DNA from: Planctomycetota bacterium
GTDB lineage: Bacteria; Planctomycetota; B15-G4
Assembly: GCA_020638905.1 (NCBI GenBank)
Contig: JACKHP010000010.1
Coordinates: 37,449 to 101,448, forward strand
Direction: 5' to 3'
Length of the DNA stretch: 64,000 bases
A model generated the notes under the pieces. The model was not told the DNA's origin and did no database searches. It saw only the letters and a list, made by a program, of their open reading frames with translations. Shown in pieces: positions 26,061 through 38,049 of the stretch. The stretch's first letter is position 1. Every line of letters starts with the position of its first letter. The translations under genes were made by a program, and so were the position numbers.

Positions 26061-28982
26061 GTGAATCGTCTTCGGCTCCGGGCCGGGGCCTGCCGAAAGA
26101 ACCGGATCGACCGATCCGCCCGGGTTCCGCGAGGCAGGCCCTTGTCCGACGACGACTTCCAGAAGCCGAGCAACGTCACGCCCAAACTGCTGGGCGCGGC
26201 CATCGCCTTCCTCGGGGGCGTGGTCGCGATCTCGTGGTACCTCAACAAGCTCGAGCTCGTGACCGTCCCGACCCAATGGGTCTCGATGCAGTACAACACC
26301 GCCGTCGGCTTCGTGCTGGTCGGACTCGCGGTGGTGGCCCACTGCGTCGGACGCAAGCGCTTCGCCTTCCTGTGCGGCGCGCTCGCCGCCGGCATCGGCA
26401 GCGTGGCCCTCGCCGAACAACTCCTGGGGCGCGAGCTGCACATCGTCGACGCGCTGTTCCTCGACGGCAGCGGGTCGTTCCAGTTCGACATGGCGCCCAA
26501 CACGGCGCTGTGCTTCGCGGTGGCGGGATGCCTGATCCTCGTCTACCGCGCGCCGCGCTCGCGGCGACGTTGGCGCGAGATGGCGTCGGGCGTCCTGGCC
26601 GCGATGCTCACCGCCGCGGGCTTCGTGGGACTGCTCAACTTCGTCCTCAACGACGGCGTGGAGACGGGCTTCGCGCGCTTCACGCAGATGGAACTGCACA
26701 CCGCGCTGGCGTTCCTCGGACTGGGCGTGGCGTTCTTCGTGATGATCGGCCACTTCGGCACCGACAGCATGCAGCGCAAGCTGCCCGCCTGGTCGCCTTG
26801 GGCCGCGGGACTCGGCGTGGGCGCGCTCGTGCTGGCCGTCTGGCTCGGGCTCACGTCGTCCGACCAGCGCCTGCGGCAGATGTCGACCACCAAGACGCAC
26901 GAGGCGGCCGTCACCCATGCGAACCAGCTGCTCCAGAACCACCTGCACGAGGTCGACAAGCTGGCGCGTCTCGTCGCGCACTCGCTGAACGGCCCGGAGG
27001 CCGACCTGCGCGCCGACGTCGAGGTGTTCACGAGCGGCATGCCGGGACTGGTCGGCATGGCCCACGTCGAGTGCGACGGTTCGATCGGCTACACCACGGA
27101 TGCGGGCCCCGACTGGGCGCGCCAGGTGCTCGCGCTGGCCGACGTCCAGGACGCGCTCGCACGCAGCCGCAGCGAGGGCGGCACGGCGGTGGCCGGACCG
27201 ATCACCACCGGCGACTTCCCGCAGTCGCTGTTCGTGGTCGTCCCGGTCGTCTGGCAGGGCGAACCGCGCGGTGAGCTCGTGTTCCAGGACGCGGTCCAGC
27301 CGTTCTTCGACGCGATCTTCGCCGAAGGCGTCGGGCGCACGTTCGACGTCGAGCTGTTCGACCAGGACAACCGCTCGTTCTACCGCTCCTACGACGTGTA
27401 CTGGGCGCCCACGCGCCACGTCTCGAGCCTGGTCGCGCACACCGAGCGCGCCACCGGCAAGGTCGCGTTCGGCGACCGCATCTGGACCATCCGCGGCGCG
27501 GTCGGCGCTCCCTGGATGCCCGGCGCGCGCAGCGCCGGCAACACGCTCATCCTCTGGATCGGCCTGTTCCTGGCGGTCTCGATCGCCTTCGCGGTGCGCA
27601 AGTCGGAGCTGCTGCGCGAACGGGCGTACTCGCTGGCGGACGCGAACTCGACCATCGAGAAGGGCGTCGTGAACCTGCAGGAGGCCAACGCGCGCCTCGA
27701 CGAACGCCGCCGCGACCTGGAGGCGGCCGAGGAGCGCCTGCGCCGTGCGGTGCGCGAGAAGCGTCGCATCCTCGACTCGCTCTCGGCCTTCCTGGTGGGC
27801 GTCGACGGCGACGGGGTCGTGACCGAGTGGAACTTCAACTCGAGCGAGCTGTTCGGGCTCTCGAGCGGCGCGGCGCTGGGTCGTCCGTTCGAGGATCTCG
27901 AGCTGCCCTGGGACCGCATCGACGTGCTCGACGCGGTGTCCGAGTGCCTCGCATCCGGGCAGCGCATCAAGCGCGACAACTTCACGGTGACGGGCGAGAC
28001 CGAGAACGACTCGCGCGTCGTCAGCTTCACCGTGAATCCAGCCCAGGACGGCGACAGCCGCCGCGGCTTCTCGATCATCGGCGCCGACGTCACCGAGCGC
28101 AACATGCTCGAGATCCAGCTGCACCAGGCCCAGAAACTCGAGTCGGTCGGCACGCTCGCCGCGGGCATCGCGCACGAGATCAACACGCCGATGCAGTTCG
28201 TGAGCGACAACGTGCGCTTCCTGTCGCAGCAGGTCGAGTCGATCACCGACCTGCTCAAGATGCAGGCCGAGCTGCTCGCCCGGCTCGACGAGGCCGGGGT
28301 CGACGACGAGCGCGTGCGCGCCGCACGGCTGCTGGTCGACTCGATGGACGTCGACTTCGTCGCCGACGAGATGCCGCTCGCGATCAACGAGACGCTCGAG
28401 GGCGTCGAGCGCGTCACGACGATCGTGAAGGCCATGAAGGACTTCAGCCACCCCGGCGACCAGTCGGTGGCCGCGTCCGACCTGAACAAGGCCATCGAGA
28501 CGACGCTGCAGGTGGCGCGCAACGAGTACAAGTACATCGTCGACGTGACCACCGACTTCGGCGACCTGCCGATGGTCGAGTGCTGGGTCGGGGACCTGAA
28601 CCAGGTCTTCCTGAACCTGCTCGTGAACGGCACGCACGCCATCCGCGAGAAGCTGGGCGACAACAGCACCGAGAAGGGGACGATCGCCATCAGCACGCGC
28701 GTCGACGGCGAGTGCGTCGAGATCAGGTTCACCGACTCCGGCACGGGCATCCCCGAGGAGGCCCGCGCGCACGTCTTCGAACAGTTCTACACCACCAAGG
28801 AGATCGGTCGCGGGACCGGCCTCGGGCTCGCCATCGCGCGCGCCGTGGTGGTCGACAAGCACGGCGGAGATCTCCGGTTCGAGACCGAGATGGACGTGGG
28901 CACGACCTTCATCGTGCGCGTCCCCGTGCGCCAGAAGCCCGCCGAGGCGACGATCGATGACACGTGTCCTCTTCGTGGATGA
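26061..28982 (+). CDS. sensor histidine kinase with N-terminal 7-TM domain, extracytoplasmic/linker domain, 8th TM, PAS, HisKA and HATPase_c
   Basis: Seven hydrophobic helices in first ~270 aa, TM LILWIGLFLAVSIAFAV, coiled coil, PAS-like segment, H-box GIAHEINTPMQFV, N/G1/G2 boxes (LLVNGTHAI, DSGTGIP, GTGLGLAIAR). Confidence 0.85.
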   Translation: MNRLRLRAGACRKNRIDRSARVPRGRPLSDDDFQKPSNVTPKLLGAAIAFLGGVVAISWYLNKLELVTVPTQWVSMQYNTAVGFVLVGLAVVAHCVGRKRFAFLCGALAAGIGSVALAEQLLGRELHIVDALFLDGSGSFQFDMAPNTALCFAVAGCLILVYRAPRSRRRWREMASGVLAAMLTAAGFVGLLNFVLNDGVETGFARFTQMELHTALAFLGLGVAFFVMIGHFGTDSMQRKLPAWSPWAAGLGVGALVLAVWLGLTSSDQRLRQMSTTKTHEAAVTHANQLLQNHLHEVDKLARLVAHSLNGPEADLRADVEVFTSGMPGLVGMAHVECDGSIGYTTDAGPDWARQVLALADVQDALARSRSEGGTAVAGPITTGDFPQSLFVVVPVVWQGEPRGELVFQDAVQPFFDAIFAEGVGRTFDVELFDQDNRSFYRSYDVYWAPTRHVSSLVAHTERATGKVAFGDRIWTIRGAVGAPWMPGARSAGNTLILWIGLFLAVSIAFAVRKSELLRERAYSLADANSTIEKGVVNLQEANARLDERRRDLEAAEERLRRAVREKRRILDSLSAFLVGVDGDGVVTEWNFNSSELFGLSSGAALGRPFEDLELPWDRIDVLDAVSECLASGQRIKRDNFTVTGETENDSRVVSFTVNPAQDGDSRRGFSIIGADVTERNMLEIQLHQAQKLESVGTLAAGIAHEINTPMQFVSDNVRFLSQQVESITDLLKMQAELLARLDEAGVDDERVRAARLLVDSMDVDFVADEMPLAINETLEGVERVTTIVKAMKDFSHPGDQSVAASDLNKAIETTLQVARNEYKYIVDVTTDFGDLPMVECWVGDLNQVFLNLLVNGTHAIREKLGDNSTEKGTIAISTRVDGECVEIRFTDSGTGIPEEARAHVFEQFYTTKEIGRGTGLGLAIARAVVVDKHGGDLRFETEMDVGTTFIVRVPVRQKPAEATIDDTCPLRG

Positions 28983-30012
28983 CGACACCCGCGTCCTGAG
29001 CGGGTTGCGACGCCAGCTGCACGACCGACGCGAGGCCTGGGAGATGGTCTTCGCGCCGGGCGGGCCCGAGGCGCTCGCGCTGGTCGGCGCCGAGACGTTC
29101 GACGCCGTCGTGACCGACATGAAGATGCCCGTGATCGACGGCGCCAAGGTGCTCGTGCAGGTCGTCGAGCGCCAGCCTTCCGCGTTGCGCATCGTGCTCT
29201 CGGGAGAGGCCGATCCCGAGCGCCGCGTCGACGCCGCGAGCTGCGCCCACCGCTACCTCGTCAAGCCGTGCGCGCCCGAGACGCTCAAGCTCGAGATCGA
29301 GCAGGGACTCGCGATGCGCGCGCGCGTCGAGGCGCTGCAGGACGCGCGTCTCGTCAGCCTGTGGCGGCGTCCGCCGTTCTCGACCGCCGGGGGGCGTGAT
29401 CTCCTCGCGGCGATGCAGTCCGAGGCGACGCAGCTCCCGCAGGGTCTGGCCGAGAGCCTGGACGCCGACGACACGCTCTGGCGCCGGGTGCGCCAGGCGC
29501 TCTCGGCGGCGTGGGTCGACGAGGTCACGCTGCGCTCGACGCCCGACGAGCTGGCGTCGGCGGTGGGCGCGCGCACCGTGCTCGGTACCGCGATGGCCGC
29601 GCGGGTGCTCGAGCTGGTCGACCTCGGCGACGGCGGAGGCTGGACGTCCGCGCTGCCCGTGGCCGTCTCCGCGCGCAAGCTCGCGCGGGAGCACGGTCTG
29701 CCGGGCGATGCGGCCGCCGAGGCCTTCCTGGGAGGCTTGTTGCACGCGGTCTGCGCCGGCGAGTCCCGCGACGACACGTGGGCCGTGCTCGCGTACGTCC
29801 TGCCGTGCTGGGGCTTCCCGCGGCGCGTGGTCGACGCCGCCACGGCCTGCCCCGACGCCTGGGCGACGTGCGGCGAGGGACATCCCCTGGCCGCGGTGCT
29901 GGCGGCGCGGCTGTTGGTGGGTGACTCGCGCGCCCCCGAACTCGTCGCCGCGCTCTCGGAGCTGGGATGGTCCGAGCGCGTCTCGGCCTGGAAGCACATC
30001 GATCGAAACTGA
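28957..30012 (+). CDS. response regulator, receiver domain fused to HDOD domain
   Basis: REC motifs VLFVDDD...DAVVTDMKMP...LVKP; C-terminal ~200 aa HDOD-like; overlaps kinase gene by 26 nt. Confidence 0.75.
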   Translation: MTRVLFVDDDTRVLSGLRRQLHDRREAWEMVFAPGGPEALALVGAETFDAVVTDMKMPVIDGAKVLVQVVERQPSALRIVLSGEADPERRVDAASCAHRYLVKPCAPETLKLEIEQGLAMRARVEALQDARLVSLWRRPPFSTAGGRDLLAAMQSEATQLPQGLAESLDADDTLWRRVRQALSAAWVDEVTLRSTPDELASAVGARTVLGTAMAARVLELVDLGDGGGWTSALPVAVSARKLAREHGLPGDAAAEAFLGGLLHAVCAGESRDDTWAVLAYVLPCWGFPRRVVDAATACPDAWATCGEGHPLAAVLAARLLVGDSRAPELVAALSELGWSERVSAWKHIDRN

Positions 30013-30123
30013 CCGGACGTTCCCGTGCGATCGGACGCAGATGGGCTGGAGTCGCCCCCGCGGACGGTCGATAGAGCAGGGTCACCGGGGCCGGACGCGC
30101 CCCGAGCCCGGAGGAGGCAAGCG

Positions 30124-30792
30124 ATGCGGCACAAGCTCCTGATCGTCGACGACGAGCCCATGATCTACCACGCGCTGCGTCGTGGTCTGCACCGCGAGGC
30201 AGAGTGGGAGACCATGTACGCCGCTGGCGCGGAGGCCGCGCTCGAGATCCTCGAGACCGAGGCGATCGACATCGTGATCTGCGACGAGAACATGCCGGGC
30301 ATGAACGGCAGCCAGCTGCTCGGACTCGTGCGCCAGCGTTGGCCCGACGTGATCAGGATGATGCTCACCGGCGACGCGCGCGTCGACGTGGTCATGAAGG
30401 CCATCAACAACGGCGAGATCTACCGCTTCTTCACCAAGCCGTGCAACGAGGCCGAGCTGATCGTGGCCCTGCGCGACGCGCTGCAGATGAAGAAGCTGAA
30501 GTCCGAGAGCCGGCGCCTGCTCGACATGGTCAAGAGCCAGGCCGCCCGCATCCGCATGCTCGAGGGCAAGGGCGGACCGCTGACCGACACGCAGGACGCG
30601 GTCCCCGCGGCGCCCGTCGCCGTGGGGCAGCGCAGCATGTCGCTGGACGAGATCACCGGCCGCGCCCCGTCCCCGGGGGCAGAACCGGCGCCGGCGCGCG
30701 GAAACGGCGTGATCGACCTGAACGGCGGCGTCGACGACGTCGACTCGCTGCTCGACGAGATCCGCTCCGAGCTGGACAACATCGCCCGCTGA
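30124..30792 (+). CDS. single-domain response regulator (REC) with low-complexity C-terminal tail
   Basis: ATG with GGAGGAGG SD upstream; LLIVDDE...DIVICDENMPGMNG...FFTKP receiver signature. Confidence 0.8.
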   Translation: MRHKLLIVDDEPMIYHALRRGLHREAEWETMYAAGAEAALEILETEAIDIVICDENMPGMNGSQLLGLVRQRWPDVIRMMLTGDARVDVVMKAINNGEIYRFFTKPCNEAELIVALRDALQMKKLKSESRRLLDMVKSQAARIRMLEGKGGPLTDTQDAVPAAPVAVGQRSMSLDEITGRAPSPGAEPAPARGNGVIDLNGGVDDVDSLLDEIRSELDNIAR

Positions 30793-30890
30793 GCGGCGGG
30801 CGGGCCGCCGCGCGTCTCCGACGCGCCGGCGGTGGATCGCCGCGAGAAGTTCGGGCTAGACTCGCGGGCTCCCGTCCAGGAGCCCGCAAG

Positions 30891-31937
30891 ATGCCGCACG
30901 CAGAGCACGTTCCGCGCGTCCCGGCGACGTGCGTCCTGTTCGTGCTGGCGGCGCTCGCGCTGTTCGGCGGCGCGCCGTCCGCGCGGGCCGGCGAGACCGG
31001 TCCCGTGCTGGTCGTCACGCCGGAGCACCTGCACCTCGGCGAGGTGTACTGGGGCTCCAGCGGACGCGGCGAGATCGTGCTCGAGAACGCGGGCGACGAG
31101 ACGCTCGTGATCGACCAGATCAGGAGCAGCTGCGGTTGCACGGTGGCCCCGCTGGCCGAGGACAGCCGGCGCCTCGAGCCGGGCGCGAAGGTGACCGTCC
31201 CGGTGATCATGACGCCCAAGGGCCCGGCCACGCCGCTGCACAAGACCCTGCACGTGGTCAGCAACGACCACCGGCACCCGGACGTCCCGGTCGAGGTCGA
31301 GTGCGACGTCAAGGTCGGCGTCGAGACGGTGCCCGGATACGTGCTGTTCCGCGACCTCGAGCTGGGCCAGGTGGCCGAGACGGACCTGAAGGTCGTCTCG
31401 CGCGACGGCGAGCCGTTCGCGATCGTCTCGGCGACCGTCAACGGCGACCTGTACGCGTTGACCTTCGAGACGGGGACCGAGGCGCTCGAGCACGTGATCC
31501 ACGTCCGGGCGGGGCCCATCGAGCGGCGCATCAACCCGTCCTGCCTGTTGACCGTGACGACCACGCACTCGCGCACGCCGACGCTCACGATCAACTGCAA
31601 CTCGATGACCGCGCCGGCACTCGTGACCGACCCGCGCTACCTGCTGCTGGGCGACGTCCCGGCCGGCGGCGAGCGCGAGATCACGGTCGAGGTGCGGCGT
31701 CCGCACGACCCGACGCCGTTCGAGTCGCTCGAGATCGTGCCCTTCAACATGCCCGAGCTGGTCGTCCGCACCCGACGCGACGAGGCGAACCCGCTGCTCT
31801 GGCACGTGGCCGTGACCGCGCCGACCGCACGCGCGGGCCAGAACCTGAACACCCCCGTGCGCCTCGTCACCGAGCTGGGCGAGGATGCCGCACTGACCAT
31901 GCTGCTCGGACTGCGCGTGACCCCGGAGAAGCCGTGA
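30891..31937 (+). CDS. DUF1573 domain-containing secreted protein (tandem Ig-like domains)
   Basis: Signal peptide, GEVYWGSSGRGEIVLENAGDETLVIDQIRSSCGCT DUF1573 signature, second similar domain. Confidence 0.7.
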   Translation: MPHAEHVPRVPATCVLFVLAALALFGGAPSARAGETGPVLVVTPEHLHLGEVYWGSSGRGEIVLENAGDETLVIDQIRSSCGCTVAPLAEDSRRLEPGAKVTVPVIMTPKGPATPLHKTLHVVSNDHRHPDVPVEVECDVKVGVETVPGYVLFRDLELGQVAETDLKVVSRDGEPFAIVSATVNGDLYALTFETGTEALEHVIHVRAGPIERRINPSCLLTVTTTHSRTPTLTINCNSMTAPALVTDPRYLLLGDVPAGGEREITVEVRRPHDPTPFESLEIVPFNMPELVVRTRRDEANPLLWHVAVTAPTARAGQNLNTPVRLVTELGEDAALTMLLGLRVTPEKP

Positions 31938-32431
31938 TGAGTGGGAAGTCCCTTGCCGTGATCGGATCCGTGCTGCTCGTCGCGGTGGCGTGCTCGTCCC
32001 CGGGTGCGGCGACCCCCGCGCCGGACGCCGCCGACGCGCCCGTCGCGGACGGCGCTGCGTCCGACGCCCCGGCCACGGCCGAGGCCGAGAGCGTGACCAA
32101 GGGCTGGCGCGAGAAGACCGTCGAGGGACTGATCGTGCGCTGGCGTCCGCTGCCCGACCCGATCCCTCTCAACAAGCTCTTCAACCTCGACATCGAGCTC
32201 GCGAACCCCACCGGCGGCCCGGTCGACGGGGTCACGCAGATGCGCGTCGACGCCAAGATGCCGGCCCACGGTCACGGCATGACGCGTCAGGCCCAGACCA
32301 TCATGGACGGCAGCGAACGCGCCCACGCGGTGGGCCTGCTGTTCCACATGGTGGGCGAGTGGGAGGTCTCGGTCGACGTGTACCGCGACCAGCACTGGAT
32401 CTCCGCCAAGTGGACCGAGACCCTCGAGTGA
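31937..32431 (+). CDS. lipoprotein with Met/His-rich motif (possible metal-binding, YtkA/FixH-like)
   Basis: ATGA-coupled to DUF1573 gene; lipobox LLVAVAC; motif AKMPAHGHGMTRQAQTIM. Confidence 0.5.
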   Translation: MSGKSLAVIGSVLLVAVACSSPGAATPAPDAADAPVADGAASDAPATAEAESVTKGWREKTVEGLIVRWRPLPDPIPLNKLFNLDIELANPTGGPVDGVTQMRVDAKMPAHGHGMTRQAQTIMDGSERAHAVGLLFHMVGEWEVSVDVYRDQHWISAKWTETLE

Positions 32432-32433
32432 GC

Positions 32434-34764
32434 ATGGCGGACGGCGCGCGCGACGGGCGCGCGCCGTCGTCCCGTGACCGGGGGGCGCGCGTCCCCCGGA
32501 GCGGGAGCGCCGCTGGCCTCGCCGTCGCGGGACTGGTCGCGCTCGCGCTGCTTTCGCCGAACGCCTGCCGCGCCCCGCTCGACGGTGCCGCGTCCGACCT
32601 GGCGCAGGCGCCCGACGCCGACACGTCGGCGCGCGGCGCCGTCGAGGCTCGGGCGGCCGGGCCGCCGTGGGTCGTGGCGCTCACGCCACTCGAGCGCAAG
32701 CGCATCCTGCGCATGTCCCCGCTCGGGGATCCGCCGCCCGACCCCACGAACGCGGTGGCCGACGACCCGCGGGCGGCGCGTCTCGGGCAGGCGCTGTTCT
32801 TCGACCCGCGGCTGTCCGACGACGGCTCGGTGGCGTGCGTGAGCTGCCACGATCCGCAGAAGGGCTGGGCCGACGGACGCCGCCTCGCGCGCGGACTGGC
32901 CGACGCGTCCTTCCACGCCCCCACGCTGTGGAACGCGGCGTACCAGCGCTGGTACTTCTGGGACGGTCGGGCCGACTCGCTCTGGGCGCAGGCCCTCGGC
33001 CCGCTCGAGAACCCCAAGGAGCACGGCGCCGACCGCTCCCTCGTGGCGCACGTCCTGCACGACGACCCGCGCCTCGCGGCGGCGTACGAGGAGGTCTTCG
33101 GCGCGCTGCCCGAACTCGACGACGCGGCGCGCTTCCCGGCGCGCGCCCGTCCGGTGCCGGGCGAGCCGTCGAATCCGCAGCAGCTCGCGTGGGACGCGAT
33201 GCATCCCAGCGACCGCGACGACGTGAACCGCGTGTTCGCCAACGTGGGCAAGTCGCTCGAGGCCTTCGAGCGCCGGATCGTCTCGAGGCACGCACCGATC
33301 GACACGTTCGTCGAGGGACTGCGCACGGGCGACGCGTCCGAGCTGGCCGCGCTCGACGAGTCGGCCGTACGCGGCGCGCAGCTCTTCGTGGGACGCGGCA
33401 ACTGCCACGTGTGCCACGGCGGCGCGACGTTCTCCGACCTCGAGTTCCACGACATCCGGCTGCCGCTGGCGGGAGCACCGTCGGTGGGCGACCCGGGACG
33501 ACTGGGCGCGTACCGCAAGCTGCGCGGCGACCCGTTCGCCGGCGGCGGGGCGTACAGCGACGATCCCGAGACCGGCGACGACAAGGTGGCGCGCCTGCTT
33601 CCGTCGGAGGAGGCCTACGGCGCCTTCAAGACGCCTTCGCTGCGCAACGTGGCGGCCACCGCGCCGTACATGCACCGGGGCCACTTCGCCACGCTCGACG
33701 ACGTGCTCGACCACTACTCGACCCTGGCCCGCGGCGGCACGCCCGTCGGACACCACACCGAGCCGCGCAGGAGCGAGAGCATCCTCGTGCCGTTGCACCT
33801 CACGGCGCAGGAGCACGACGATCTGCGAGCGTTCCTCGAGTCGCTCACCGACACGGCCATCGACCCGGCGCTCACCCGTCCGCCGGCCGGACTGGAACCC
33901 CCGCCGCCGCGTCCGCGCTCACGGGCGCTCGACGACTTCCGCGCGATCTCGGCCGACGCGCTCGAGTCGCATCCGCTCGAGGAGCTGGCCGGGCTCGACC
34001 GCGTGCGCGGCTGGCGCCTGCGCGAGGACCTCGTGCGCGCCCTGGCCGATCCGGAGTCGACGCGCTTCAAGGAGCCGTTGTTCCTGCCGGGCGTCGAGGC
34101 GTTGCTGCCGCGCGAGGCCGCCGAGCTCGCGCGCTACGACGGTGGACGCCTGTTCCTGCGCGACCTGCGTGCGCTCGACCTCGAGACCGCGCGACAGCTC
34201 GTCGGATTCCGTCCAGGGGGCGAACTGTTCCTCGACGGACTCGCGACGCTCGACCTCGATGTCGCCCGCGTGCTCGCCGCGTGGAAGGGCGACCGGCTCT
34301 CGCTCGGCGGACTGACGTCGCTGTCGCCCGACCTGGCGCAGGTGCTGGCGGTCTTCGGCGGCGGACTCGAGCTCGACGGTGTGCGTGGGCTCGACGACGA
34401 GACCGCGCGCGCCCTGTCCGCGTGGCGCTCGCCCGGGCCCGGACGCATGCTCTCGCTCGACGGCGTGCGCGGGCTCGCGCCGGAGGTCGTGGCGACGCTC
34501 GCGGCCGTCGACGGCTGGGGGCTCAGCCTGGGCGGGCTCGAGACCCTCGACGCGCCGCTGGCCGAGGCGCTGCGGGGCGCGCACGTCACGCTGCTGCGCC
34601 TCGACGGCGTGCGCTCGCTGTCGTCCGACGCGGTCGAGCCCATGACGCACTGGACGGCGCGCTTCGTCGAGCTGCGCGCGCTGCGCGAGGCCGACGCCGA
34701 CACGCGCGCCCGGCTCGAGGCCGCGCCGCCCGTCTTCAGCCTCGATCCGCCGCCGGGCGCCTGA
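32434..34764 (+). CDS. di-heme cytochrome c peroxidase (CCP/MauG family) with C-terminal LRR-like repeat domain
   Basis: Two CxxCH motifs (CVSCHD, CHVCHG), conserved CCP segments (FFDPRLS, AFKTPSLRNVAATAPYMHRGHFATL); C-terminal ~210 aa of ~7 LxLxGLxxL..A..LA repeats. Confidence 0.8.
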   Translation: MADGARDGRAPSSRDRGARVPRSGSAAGLAVAGLVALALLSPNACRAPLDGAASDLAQAPDADTSARGAVEARAAGPPWVVALTPLERKRILRMSPLGDPPPDPTNAVADDPRAARLGQALFFDPRLSDDGSVACVSCHDPQKGWADGRRLARGLADASFHAPTLWNAAYQRWYFWDGRADSLWAQALGPLENPKEHGADRSLVAHVLHDDPRLAAAYEEVFGALPELDDAARFPARARPVPGEPSNPQQLAWDAMHPSDRDDVNRVFANVGKSLEAFERRIVSRHAPIDTFVEGLRTGDASELAALDESAVRGAQLFVGRGNCHVCHGGATFSDLEFHDIRLPLAGAPSVGDPGRLGAYRKLRGDPFAGGGAYSDDPETGDDKVARLLPSEEAYGAFKTPSLRNVAATAPYMHRGHFATLDDVLDHYSTLARGGTPVGHHTEPRRSESILVPLHLTAQEHDDLRAFLESLTDTAIDPALTRPPAGLEPPPPRPRSRALDDFRAISADALESHPLEELAGLDRVRGWRLREDLVRALADPESTRFKEPLFLPGVEALLPREAAELARYDGGRLFLRDLRALDLETARQLVGFRPGGELFLDGLATLDLDVARVLAAWKGDRLSLGGLTSLSPDLAQVLAVFGGGLELDGVRGLDDETARALSAWRSPGPGRMLSLDGVRGLAPEVVATLAAVDGWGLSLGGLETLDAPLAEALRGAHVTLLRLDGVRSLSSDAVEPMTHWTARFVELRALREADADTRARLEAAPPVFSLDPPPGA

Positions 34765-34785
34765 CGCGCCGACGGACGGCGCTCG

Positions 34786-38049
<3,264 letters not shown>

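Follow-up and report, generated by a model that had tools for sequence, protein, structure and literature searches.

Within the 64,000-nucleotide stretch of Planctomycetota DNA analysed here (hereafter the window; positions 37,449 to 101,448 of contig JACKHP010000010.1, assembly GCA_020638905.1), two adjacent genes on the forward strand encode a YtkA-like lipoprotein (31937-32431, 164 amino acids) and a MauG/MbnH-like di-heme enzyme (32434-34764, 776 amino acids). They represent one instance of a module that is widespread and whose two parts are obligately paired. The lipoprotein has the YtkA/CrdA copper-binding fold, with a conserved site of three His and three Met on two neighbouring loops and Trp142 adjacent to it; the enzyme belongs to the cytochrome c peroxidase (CCP)/MauG superfamily, and its six-coordinate heme is predicted to be ligated by His and Tyr, as in MauG, MbnH and BthA. 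Taken jointly, we hold these three statements with high confidence. The two proteins very probably work as a complex, given the translational coupling of their genes and the fusions found in some organisms. That they act together is, in our view, established as far as comparative genomics allows; what they do together, we infer. To the reading we favour, in which the enzyme would oxidatively modify its paired copper lipoprotein by analogy with MbnH and MbnP, we assign a probability of roughly 0.4.

Conservation of the gene pair

Both genes lie where a preliminary description, made from the letters of the window, had placed them: a 164-residue lipoprotein starting at 31937, with a di-heme peroxidase next to it. 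The coupling and close spacing it reported are borne out as well, with a spacer of 2 nucleotides instead of the 3 given there: the TGA stop of the lipoprotein gene ends at 32431, the letters GC follow, and the ATG of the enzyme begins at 32434. Starting from the lipoprotein motifs and counting one genome per species, an enzyme homolog was found immediately downstream on the same strand in 74 of 80 loci, or in 74 of the 78 informative ones, two loci ending before the downstream position becomes visible. The six exceptions comprise these two, three loci without the enzyme and one with another gene order (L017, 2291-6366), in which a more distant di-heme CCP of 603 amino acids is followed by a protein of about 600 amino acids and then by the YtkA-like gene. 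In 44 loci, the stop of the lipoprotein shares 4 nucleotides with the nearest in-frame start of the enzyme; in 6 the overlap is 1 nucleotide (together 50 of 74), and in 9 more the start lies within 7 nucleotides of the stop. Searched from the other side, with the enzyme as the starting point in metagenome contigs, the YtkA-like gene is directly upstream in 52 of the 57 loci with enough upstream sequence. Synteny, which the preliminary description had named as a check on its proposed pairing, thus holds in both directions and across several phyla.

By record title, the pair loci stem from Planctomycetota, Beta- and Alphaproteobacteria, 'Deltaproteobacteria'/Myxococcota and Verrucomicrobiota, and further from Holophagae (Acidobacteriota), Binatia and Sericytochromatia/Blackallbacteria, non-photosynthetic relatives of the cyanobacteria. 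A typical pair is carried by the cultured Planctomycete Phycisphaerae bacterium RAS1 (L167, 5536-5997 and 6001-7329). Two independent natural fusions place a YtkA-like domain at the N terminus of the enzyme: L020 (1721-3415), which has opposite-strand genes on both sides, and P0295 (L166, 404-2176), a protein of 590 amino acids that matches both PF13115 and PF03150.

Three of the five metagenome exceptions (L104, L124 and L130) form one subgroup, located downstream of a ClpA-like gene. In L104 (1693-2736) and L124 (1406-2455), a gene for a membrane protein that, from reading the sequence (WHMYPLGMLFGLGFDTASE), looks like a NiCoT-type nickel/cobalt transporter stands between the ClpA-like gene and the enzyme.

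The lipoprotein and the enzyme

The lipoprotein begins with a signal peptide (31937-31993) that ends in the lipobox VAVAC, whose Cys19 is encoded at 31991-31993 and is conserved at 90% or more among 47 diverse relatives. The N terminus reads MSGKSLAVIGSVLLVAVAC, followed by SS, and agrees by inspection with the PROSITE-type lipobox pattern; the protein is predicted to be a bacterial lipoprotein held by a lipid anchor. Both the lipobox Cys and the motif AKMPAHGHGM, to which the preliminary description had drawn attention, are present in the translation. Among Pfam families at E<=1, the window protein matches YtkA-like (PF13115) only, with 14.1 bits and E 0.078 against a gathering threshold of 25.9, and neither CopC nor PCuAC. 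No NCBIfam family is matched at E<=1, in a library that has the MbnH model TIGR04039 and, as we assume, an MbnP model. The family-level picture is clearer: 44 of the 47 diverse homologs, found with a profile of the lipoprotein, match PF13115 at E<=0.01, the best of them at 7.6e-10. Among the copper-protein families that the preliminary description had suggested for comparison, YtkA is the one matched by the homologs, and the window protein gave no match to CopC or PCuAC in Pfam or to any family in NCBIfam. A word-based search with the single sequence returned five relatives, in which D-A-x-M-P-x-H-G-H-G-M and F-H-M-V-G-x-W-E are invariant. The reading of the protein as a rare orphan, which these five relatives might prompt, is rejected by an exhaustive profile search, which shows a large family: 3168 clusters at 50% identity for E<=1e-3 and 1386 for E<=1e-10. 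Its members are mostly 130-200 amino acids long and carry public names such as 'hypothetical', 'YtkA-like' and 'FixH family'.

Conservation centres on two motifs. Motif 1, MPAHGHGM (M108, H111, H113, M115; 32258-32281), forms the loop after strand 99-108, and motif 2, FHMVGEW (H137, M138, G140, W142; 32342-32362), forms the hairpin between strands 128-135 and 140-150. In an alignment of 124 sequences that are about 30% identical to the window protein, M108, P109, H111, H113, G114 and M115 are invariant, as are G133, H137, M138, G140, W142 and D147, and the Met/His cluster that had been read as a Cu-type site in the preliminary description is thereby conserved throughout the aligned homologs. 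Among 148 open reading frames (ORFs) of the lipoprotein family in the fetched loci, 132 contain MPxHxHGM and 146 contain HMxGxW, and in 126 the second motif follows the first by 29 residues. The window protein is itself a divergent member, without the TERAQ motif and with Ser in place of a near-invariant Tyr at position 145.

An AlphaFold2 (AF2) model built on the 124-sequence alignment is an eight-strand beta-sandwich with a predicted local distance difference test score (pLDDT) above 90 over residues 57-164. In a Foldseek search, its top match is CrdA (9ll2; E 9e-6, template-modelling score 0.73, root-mean-square deviation 2.9 A), followed by the periplasmic copper-binding proteins FtrA-P19 and FetP, with CopC at rank 29 (E 0.013). 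At the sequence level, the lipoprotein profile gives a marginal CrdA match in the PDB (E 0.12), in an alignment that spans the whole CrdA chain and brings motif 1 onto the Met-rich loop MPEMPGMPAM of CrdA and motif 2 onto its hairpin SMNGTW. M108, M115, M138, G140 and W142 are common to both. At the positions of H111, H113 and H137, CrdA carries Met, Met and Ser, and the three His are thus specific to the MauG-paired subfamily. Judging from the order of the strands, not from coordinates, both motifs and a conserved PxPIPxNE loop would lie at the same end of the sandwich. The copper site itself remains putative; it is suggested by the invariant His and Met residues and by homology to CrdA and CtaK.

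A variant subgroup of YtkA-like proteins (L105, L131, L132, L141, L148, L151 and L160) has GM(R/M)HG-x5-(A/M)H(G/A)M in place of MPxHxHGM, and its members end in a C-terminal Pro/Gln-Cys-Cys. These features suggest another metal or thiol site, either in place of the usual one or added to it.

The catalytic part of the enzyme comprises residues ~80-480 and matches CCP_MauG (PF03150) with 134 bits (E 6e-39; cut-off 25.6). Two heme-binding motifs, CVSCH (C135, C138, H139; 32836-32850) and CHVCH (C324, C327, H328; 33403-33417), are invariant in 25 partner enzymes, as are the inter-heme Trp (in FWDGR) and Tyr428 (33715-33717), the predicted axial ligand of the six-coordinate heme. Tyr428, in the segment LDHYST, aligns with Tyr294 of MauG (counted off the alignment) and with the Tyr of VIDIYS in MbnH; in Shewanella CcpA, the same position is the Met of VNTMAD, the ligand of the high-potential heme. 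With Tyr in place of this Met, we reject an identity as canonical peroxidase. The MauG/CCP-like character assigned in the preliminary description is supported by the two CXXCH motifs and by the Tyr, the latter being what sets MauG, MbnH and BthA apart from Met-ligated peroxidases. Tyr-His ligation is a feature linked to the bis-Fe(IV) state in MauG and BthA (PMC6405878).

Within the superfamily, the best single-sequence PDB match of the enzyme is MbnH (6E1C, 2e-27), and a profile of the 25 partner enzymes is nearly equidistant from MauG (176 bits), MbnH (172) and canonical CCP (169), with BthA at 113. All 25 match the NCBIfam models for MauG, for the MbnH family and for the MauG-like protein of His-Xaa-Ser systems. 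The window enzyme scores 162-165 bits against the first (TIGR03791; cut-off 443.85), 150-153 against the second (TIGR04039; cut-off 362.85) and 108 against the third (cut-off 340). A true MauG can be rejected on its score, far under the cut-off, and on the wrong partner and context; a true MbnH, likewise far under its cut-off, is rejected with a partner that is YtkA-like and not MbnP. Many partner enzymes have a Cys at the end of the signal peptide, as the lipoproteins do.

The preliminary description was right about the di-heme peroxidase part and did not mention that the last ~295 residues form an extra domain. This C-terminal extension (33871-34761) consists of a Pro-rich linker and a predicted leucine-rich repeat (LRR) solenoid of about nine strand-helix repeats (AF2 pLDDT 81, predicted template-modelling score 0.80). 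It has no Pfam or PDB sequence match, and the LRR assignment came from structure prediction only; among the Foldseek matches listed, most are LRR proteins. The extension was not found in the partner enzymes of the 80 related loci. It is common to P0256 (NCBI H6825_08075), a 762-amino-acid paralog from a different contig of the same metagenome-assembled genome (MAG), which is 55% identical to the window enzyme across the catalytic and LRR parts and is the best match of the protein search; the window enzyme itself was not returned. The domain appears to be lineage-specific and suggests the recruitment of a further protein.

Possible functions of the pair

But what would such a pair do? Long-range protein modification driven by heme has its textbook example in the MauG-type enzymes, and to our knowledge few of their substrates have been identified: pre-methylamine dehydrogenase, MbnP and presumably MopE/CorA and MtoX. 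The genes of MopE and CorA precede genes for MauG-like enzymes, MCA2590 and CorB. MbnH turns a Trp of the copper protein MbnP into kynurenine, which the MbnP site needs, and the copper sites of MopE and CorA carry kynurenine as well (PMC11951088). Because MauG and MbnH modify partner proteins, and because MbnP, MopE and CorA set a kynurenine precedent, modification of the lipoprotein by the enzyme is the likeliest single mechanism. By analogy with MbnP/MbnH, MopE/MCA2590 and CorA/CorB, the lipoprotein would be the protein substrate. H2O2 would react at the five-coordinate heme to give a high-valent state of the bis-Fe(IV) type, and this oxidant would then act at a distance on a side chain within or beside the His/Met site, with Trp142 as the best candidate target and the His or Met ligands as alternatives. 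The modification would create or tune the copper site of the mature lipoprotein, which in turn would acquire, buffer or deliver copper at the membrane; the LRR domain of the enzyme may, in this genome, add a docking surface for proteins. The pair could act independently of any third gene, since what stands in third place varies and some loci have only opposite-strand genes at their flanks. More tentatively, the pair may form a fourth and far more widespread class of copper protein with MauG-like maturase, after MbnPH, MopE/MCA2590 and CorAB, in which the enzyme would install a protein-derived modification at the His3/Met3 site; Trp142 or one of the His or Met ligands might bear it.

To place the pair in its genomic context, genes around it were called with a self-trained codon model, clustered and scanned in 68 upstream and 65 downstream loci. 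An NHL beta-propeller precedes the pair in 14 of 68 loci, and also in L003 and L004; Amidohydro_2 proteins do so in another 14, mostly of Betaproteobacteria, Kelch propellers in 5, and the other upstream genes are unrelated. Downstream, 12 of 65 loci, mostly from Planctomycetota, encode a choice-of-anchor B/LVIVD propeller of about 800 amino acids with many invariant His and Trp. Many Planctomycete loci show a four-gene order of NHL propeller, YtkA-like protein, MauG-like enzyme and the ~800-amino-acid choice-of-anchor B/LVIVD protein, the last with a dockerin-like tail; examples are L057 (3866-5938 and 7838-10261), L005, L019, L023, L039 and L040. The pair may have the propellers of these four-gene loci as its substrates. 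Neither side shows a universal third gene, and the downstream genes are heterogeneous. Hidden Markov models of the neighbour families found no NHL, amidohydrolase or LVIVD homolog in the window. Among the scanned neighbours of the pair, we saw no copper-efflux, classical copper-resistance or Sco genes and no peroxide-stress genes.

Several observations weigh against modification of the lipoprotein. Trp199 of MauG is the hole-hopping residue at the interface with the substrate, and its position is Gly in the window enzyme (FVGRGNC versus ITWNC in MauG). Trp142 is also present in CrdA and may be a mere residue of the fold, which weakens the case for its modification; we know of no MauG partner or adjacent di-heme enzyme for CrdA. 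The Tyr conserved in at least 90% of the family is the one replaced by Ser at position 145 of the window protein. Fusing an enzyme to a single-turnover substrate would be uneconomical. Secreted beta-propeller genes of the NHL, Kelch or choice-of-anchor B/LVIVD type flank the pair in about one third of loci, and one di-heme enzyme of the partner clade, P0357 (L165, 61-2328, on a contig that begins 60 nucleotides upstream), carries a C-terminal NHL beta-propeller as a fusion; such neighbours and the fusion suggest a different substrate in those lineages. The characterised members of the YtkA family are copper-delivery factors, not enzyme substrates (PMC13344008), and known fusions of a copper protein with a MauG-like enzyme involve the chaperone SCO1 (PMC5739008). 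BthA, finally, has Tyr-His ligation and yet turns over H2O2 as a peroxidase (PMC6405878).

Some of these points would fit a different division of labour, in which copper delivery falls to the lipoprotein and the installation of a protein-derived cofactor to the enzyme, the two acting on a third secreted protein. The target would be the neighbouring NHL, Kelch or LVIVD propeller in some lineages and a protein encoded elsewhere in others; in this genome, it could be the DUF1573 protein encoded upstream of the pair or a partner recruited by the LRR domain, which is of a protein-binding type. In the assembly of CuA, Sco works together with CtaK/YtkA and with the YtkA domain of YcnJ (PMC13344008). 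Operons of the mtoX-SCO1-mauG type show wide conservation, and SCO1-MauG fusions occur among them (PMC5739008), to which the YtkA-like/CCP fusions are a parallel. The NHL and Kelch genes directly upstream, the LVIVD propeller downstream with its invariant His and Trp, and the enzyme fused to an NHL domain would all supply candidate targets. However, no third gene is kept family-wide, with upstream NHL, Amidohydro_2 and Kelch genes each confined to the fractions given above; some loci, including the fusion L020, have only opposite-strand genes as flanks; and the window has none of the three neighbour families searched for. The pairing itself, above 90% in both directions, is far tighter than the association with any candidate target, and we regard such a maturation of a third protein, though it has genuine support, as somewhat doubtful.

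A two-subunit heme-copper redox enzyme appears quite unlikely to us. Here, the lipoprotein would be a permanent redox-active subunit of a periplasmic peroxidase or oxidase, serving as the site of electron entry or of Cu(I) or small-substrate oxidation, and the pair would detoxify H2O2 or oxidise Cu(I) instead of carrying out a one-off modification. Canonical bacterial CCPs do take electrons from small copper proteins, for example pseudoazurin and azurin. The strict 1:1 translational coupling and the natural fusions are typical of stable subunits, the three His gained relative to the all-Met site of CrdA would suit both Cu(I) and Cu(II), and the Cys at the end of the signal peptide in many partner enzymes and in the lipoproteins means that both may be anchored in the same membrane. 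BthA provides an example of a Tyr-His di-heme protein that is a catalytic peroxidase (PMC6405878). Against this stand a site without a Cys ligand, which is therefore not a type-1 electron-transfer copper centre, and the lack of copper-resistance and peroxide-stress genes among the scanned neighbours. Moreover, the characterised enzymes whose genes have a copper-protein gene immediately upstream (MbnH, MCA2590 and CorB) go with kynurenine-bearing partners. Could the adjacency be fortuitous altogether, and the Met/His cluster a low-complexity coincidence? Taken alone, the window lipoprotein is under every Pfam and NCBIfam cut-off, and the word-based search gave five close homologs only. But the pairing recurs at independent loci in several phyla, at the rates given above for genomes and metagenomes, most loci have overlapping stop and start codons, natural fusions exist, and the motif residues stay invariant in sequences that share about 30% of their residues with the window protein. 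Synteny and conservation thus lead us to reject a chance arrangement, to which we attach next to no probability.

The locus and related systems

In the window, the pair is preceded on the same strand by a gene for a secreted protein of 348 amino acids (30891-31937), whose stop codon shares 1 nucleotide with the ATG of the lipoprotein gene (TGATG). With this overlap and the 2-nucleotide spacer that follows the lipoprotein gene, three coupled same-strand genes are therefore present here, not two. The upstream protein has three domains, the N-terminal one being a DUF1573/ASH Ig-like domain (Pfam DUF1573, E 3.7e-12) that contains SCGCT; it also matches the NCBIfam OS_HP2 (seleno)protein domain below the cut-off (E 7e-12). 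DUF1573 is not among the 25 Pfam families listed for upstream neighbours in related loci, and its gene is a possible third operon member in this genome only. A near-identical public protein, P0001, is annotated as 'hypothetical protein H6825_08850' in a Planctomycetes MAG. Its NCBI start is a GTG seven codons downstream (31958 versus 31937), which gives a protein of 157 amino acids and leaves out the Lys-containing n-region of the signal peptide. Judged by this Lys and by the TGATG overlap with the upstream gene, the ATG at 31937 appears to be the better start.

Directly upstream on the same strand (26061-30792) are genes for a PAS histidine kinase, for a response regulator that weakly matches HDOD and for a receiver-domain protein that stands alone. 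It is possible that the kinase and the two regulators control the three-gene unit; a Pfam scan showed no DNA-binding domain in either regulator. On the other side, the enzyme gene is met by a long convergent ORF on the opposite strand that, from reading its translation, resembles the large subunit of carbamoyl-phosphate synthase (carB-like). The window has ~72% G+C. A scan of 29900-35000 for promoters and terminators found no promoter-like site and a single terminator-like site, located inside the enzyme gene and at chance level.

Full-text literature searches returned no paper that links YtkA-like proteins to enzymes of the MauG type or to cytochrome c peroxidases, and the public annotation of the pair is generic ('hypothetical protein' and 'cytochrome c peroxidase'). 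The pair joins an enzyme of a known kind to a new family of partners and looks like an undescribed relative of the systems in which such enzymes mature copper proteins. A large family is now defined, and its obligate, easily expressed partner of 110 residues makes the function of the enzyme directly testable. If the partner is modified, the pair would add a new protein-derived cofactor or copper site and tie the YtkA chaperone fold to oxidative maturation; as a fourth class of its kind, it would hold a copper centre of a kind new to biology, built into the fold of a chaperone. Should the partner prove to be a chaperone or a redox subunit, the pair would instead represent a new periplasmic pathway that depends on copper, in phyla that are abundant in the environment.

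Finally, we would like to place the pair into the context of known systems. BthA, the Tyr-His di-heme peroxidase of Burkholderia (6NX0), shares the Tyr-His six-coordinate heme, and its physiological substrate is likewise not known; its match to the clade profile is much weaker (113 bits versus ~175 for MauG and MbnH), and it is without the inter-heme Trp (PMC6405878) that is kept in this clade. MauG, which acts on pre-methylamine dehydrogenase in tryptophan tryptophylquinone biosynthesis, resembles the window enzyme in its di-heme fold, its inter-heme Trp and the Tyr294 that aligns with Tyr428, and the proposed mechanism is modelled on the way in which MauG, driven by H2O2, oxidises a partner protein over a long range. 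MauG differs in the score of the window enzyme (162-165 bits against a cut-off of 444), in the Trp199 position, which is not kept, and in its context: no mau genes (mauA/mauB) adjoin the window enzyme, whose neighbours are the DUF1573 and YtkA-like genes, the response regulators and the carB-like ORF.

The mtoX-SCO1/senC-mauG arrangement shares with the pair a copper-chaperone-type gene directly before a MauG-like gene, sometimes fused to it (PMC5739008). Its mtoX gene encodes a propeller copper enzyme, methanethiol oxidase (PMC5739008). The secreted-propeller gene that precedes the pair in many Planctomycete relatives gives the same order of target, chaperone and MauG. However, the chaperone-like protein here has the YtkA fold and not the thioredoxin fold of Sco, the propellers are of the NHL, Kelch or LVIVD type and not SBP56, and the third gene lacks conservation and is missing from the window. 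In Bacillus subtilis, CtaK (formerly named YtkA) and a YtkA domain in YcnJ belong to PF13115, the family that most homologs of the lipoprotein match, and CtaK is likewise a membrane-anchored lipoprotein on the outer side of the cytoplasmic membrane. We know of no MauG-like partner for either Bacillus protein, and the window protein would be a divergent PF13115 member (14 bits, under the cut-off) whose signature was compared with CrdA only. Both Bacillus proteins are implicated in copper handling (PMC13344008). CrdA, the copper resistance determinant of Helicobacter pylori (9LL2, 9LL4), is the best structural match; its Met-rich loop and M-x-G-x-W hairpin align with the two motifs, and at the positions that in the paired family are the invariant His111, His113 and His137 it carries Met, Met and Ser.

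MbnP/MbnH (6E1C, 7L6G) differs in its partner, which here is a YtkA/CrdA-fold domain of ~110 residues without an NCBIfam match; in the window enzyme, which scores ~150 bits against a cut-off of 363; in a WxW motif, which is absent here; and in its surroundings, as no methanobactin or copCD genes occur among the neighbours examined. What the two systems have in common is a gene for a periplasmic copper protein immediately upstream of a MauG-like di-heme enzyme, an enzyme for which MbnH is the best single-sequence PDB match, and the Tyr kept in both. The copper site of MbnP, made up of His, Met and a modified Trp (PMC11951088), resembles the putative His/Met site of the lipoprotein described here.

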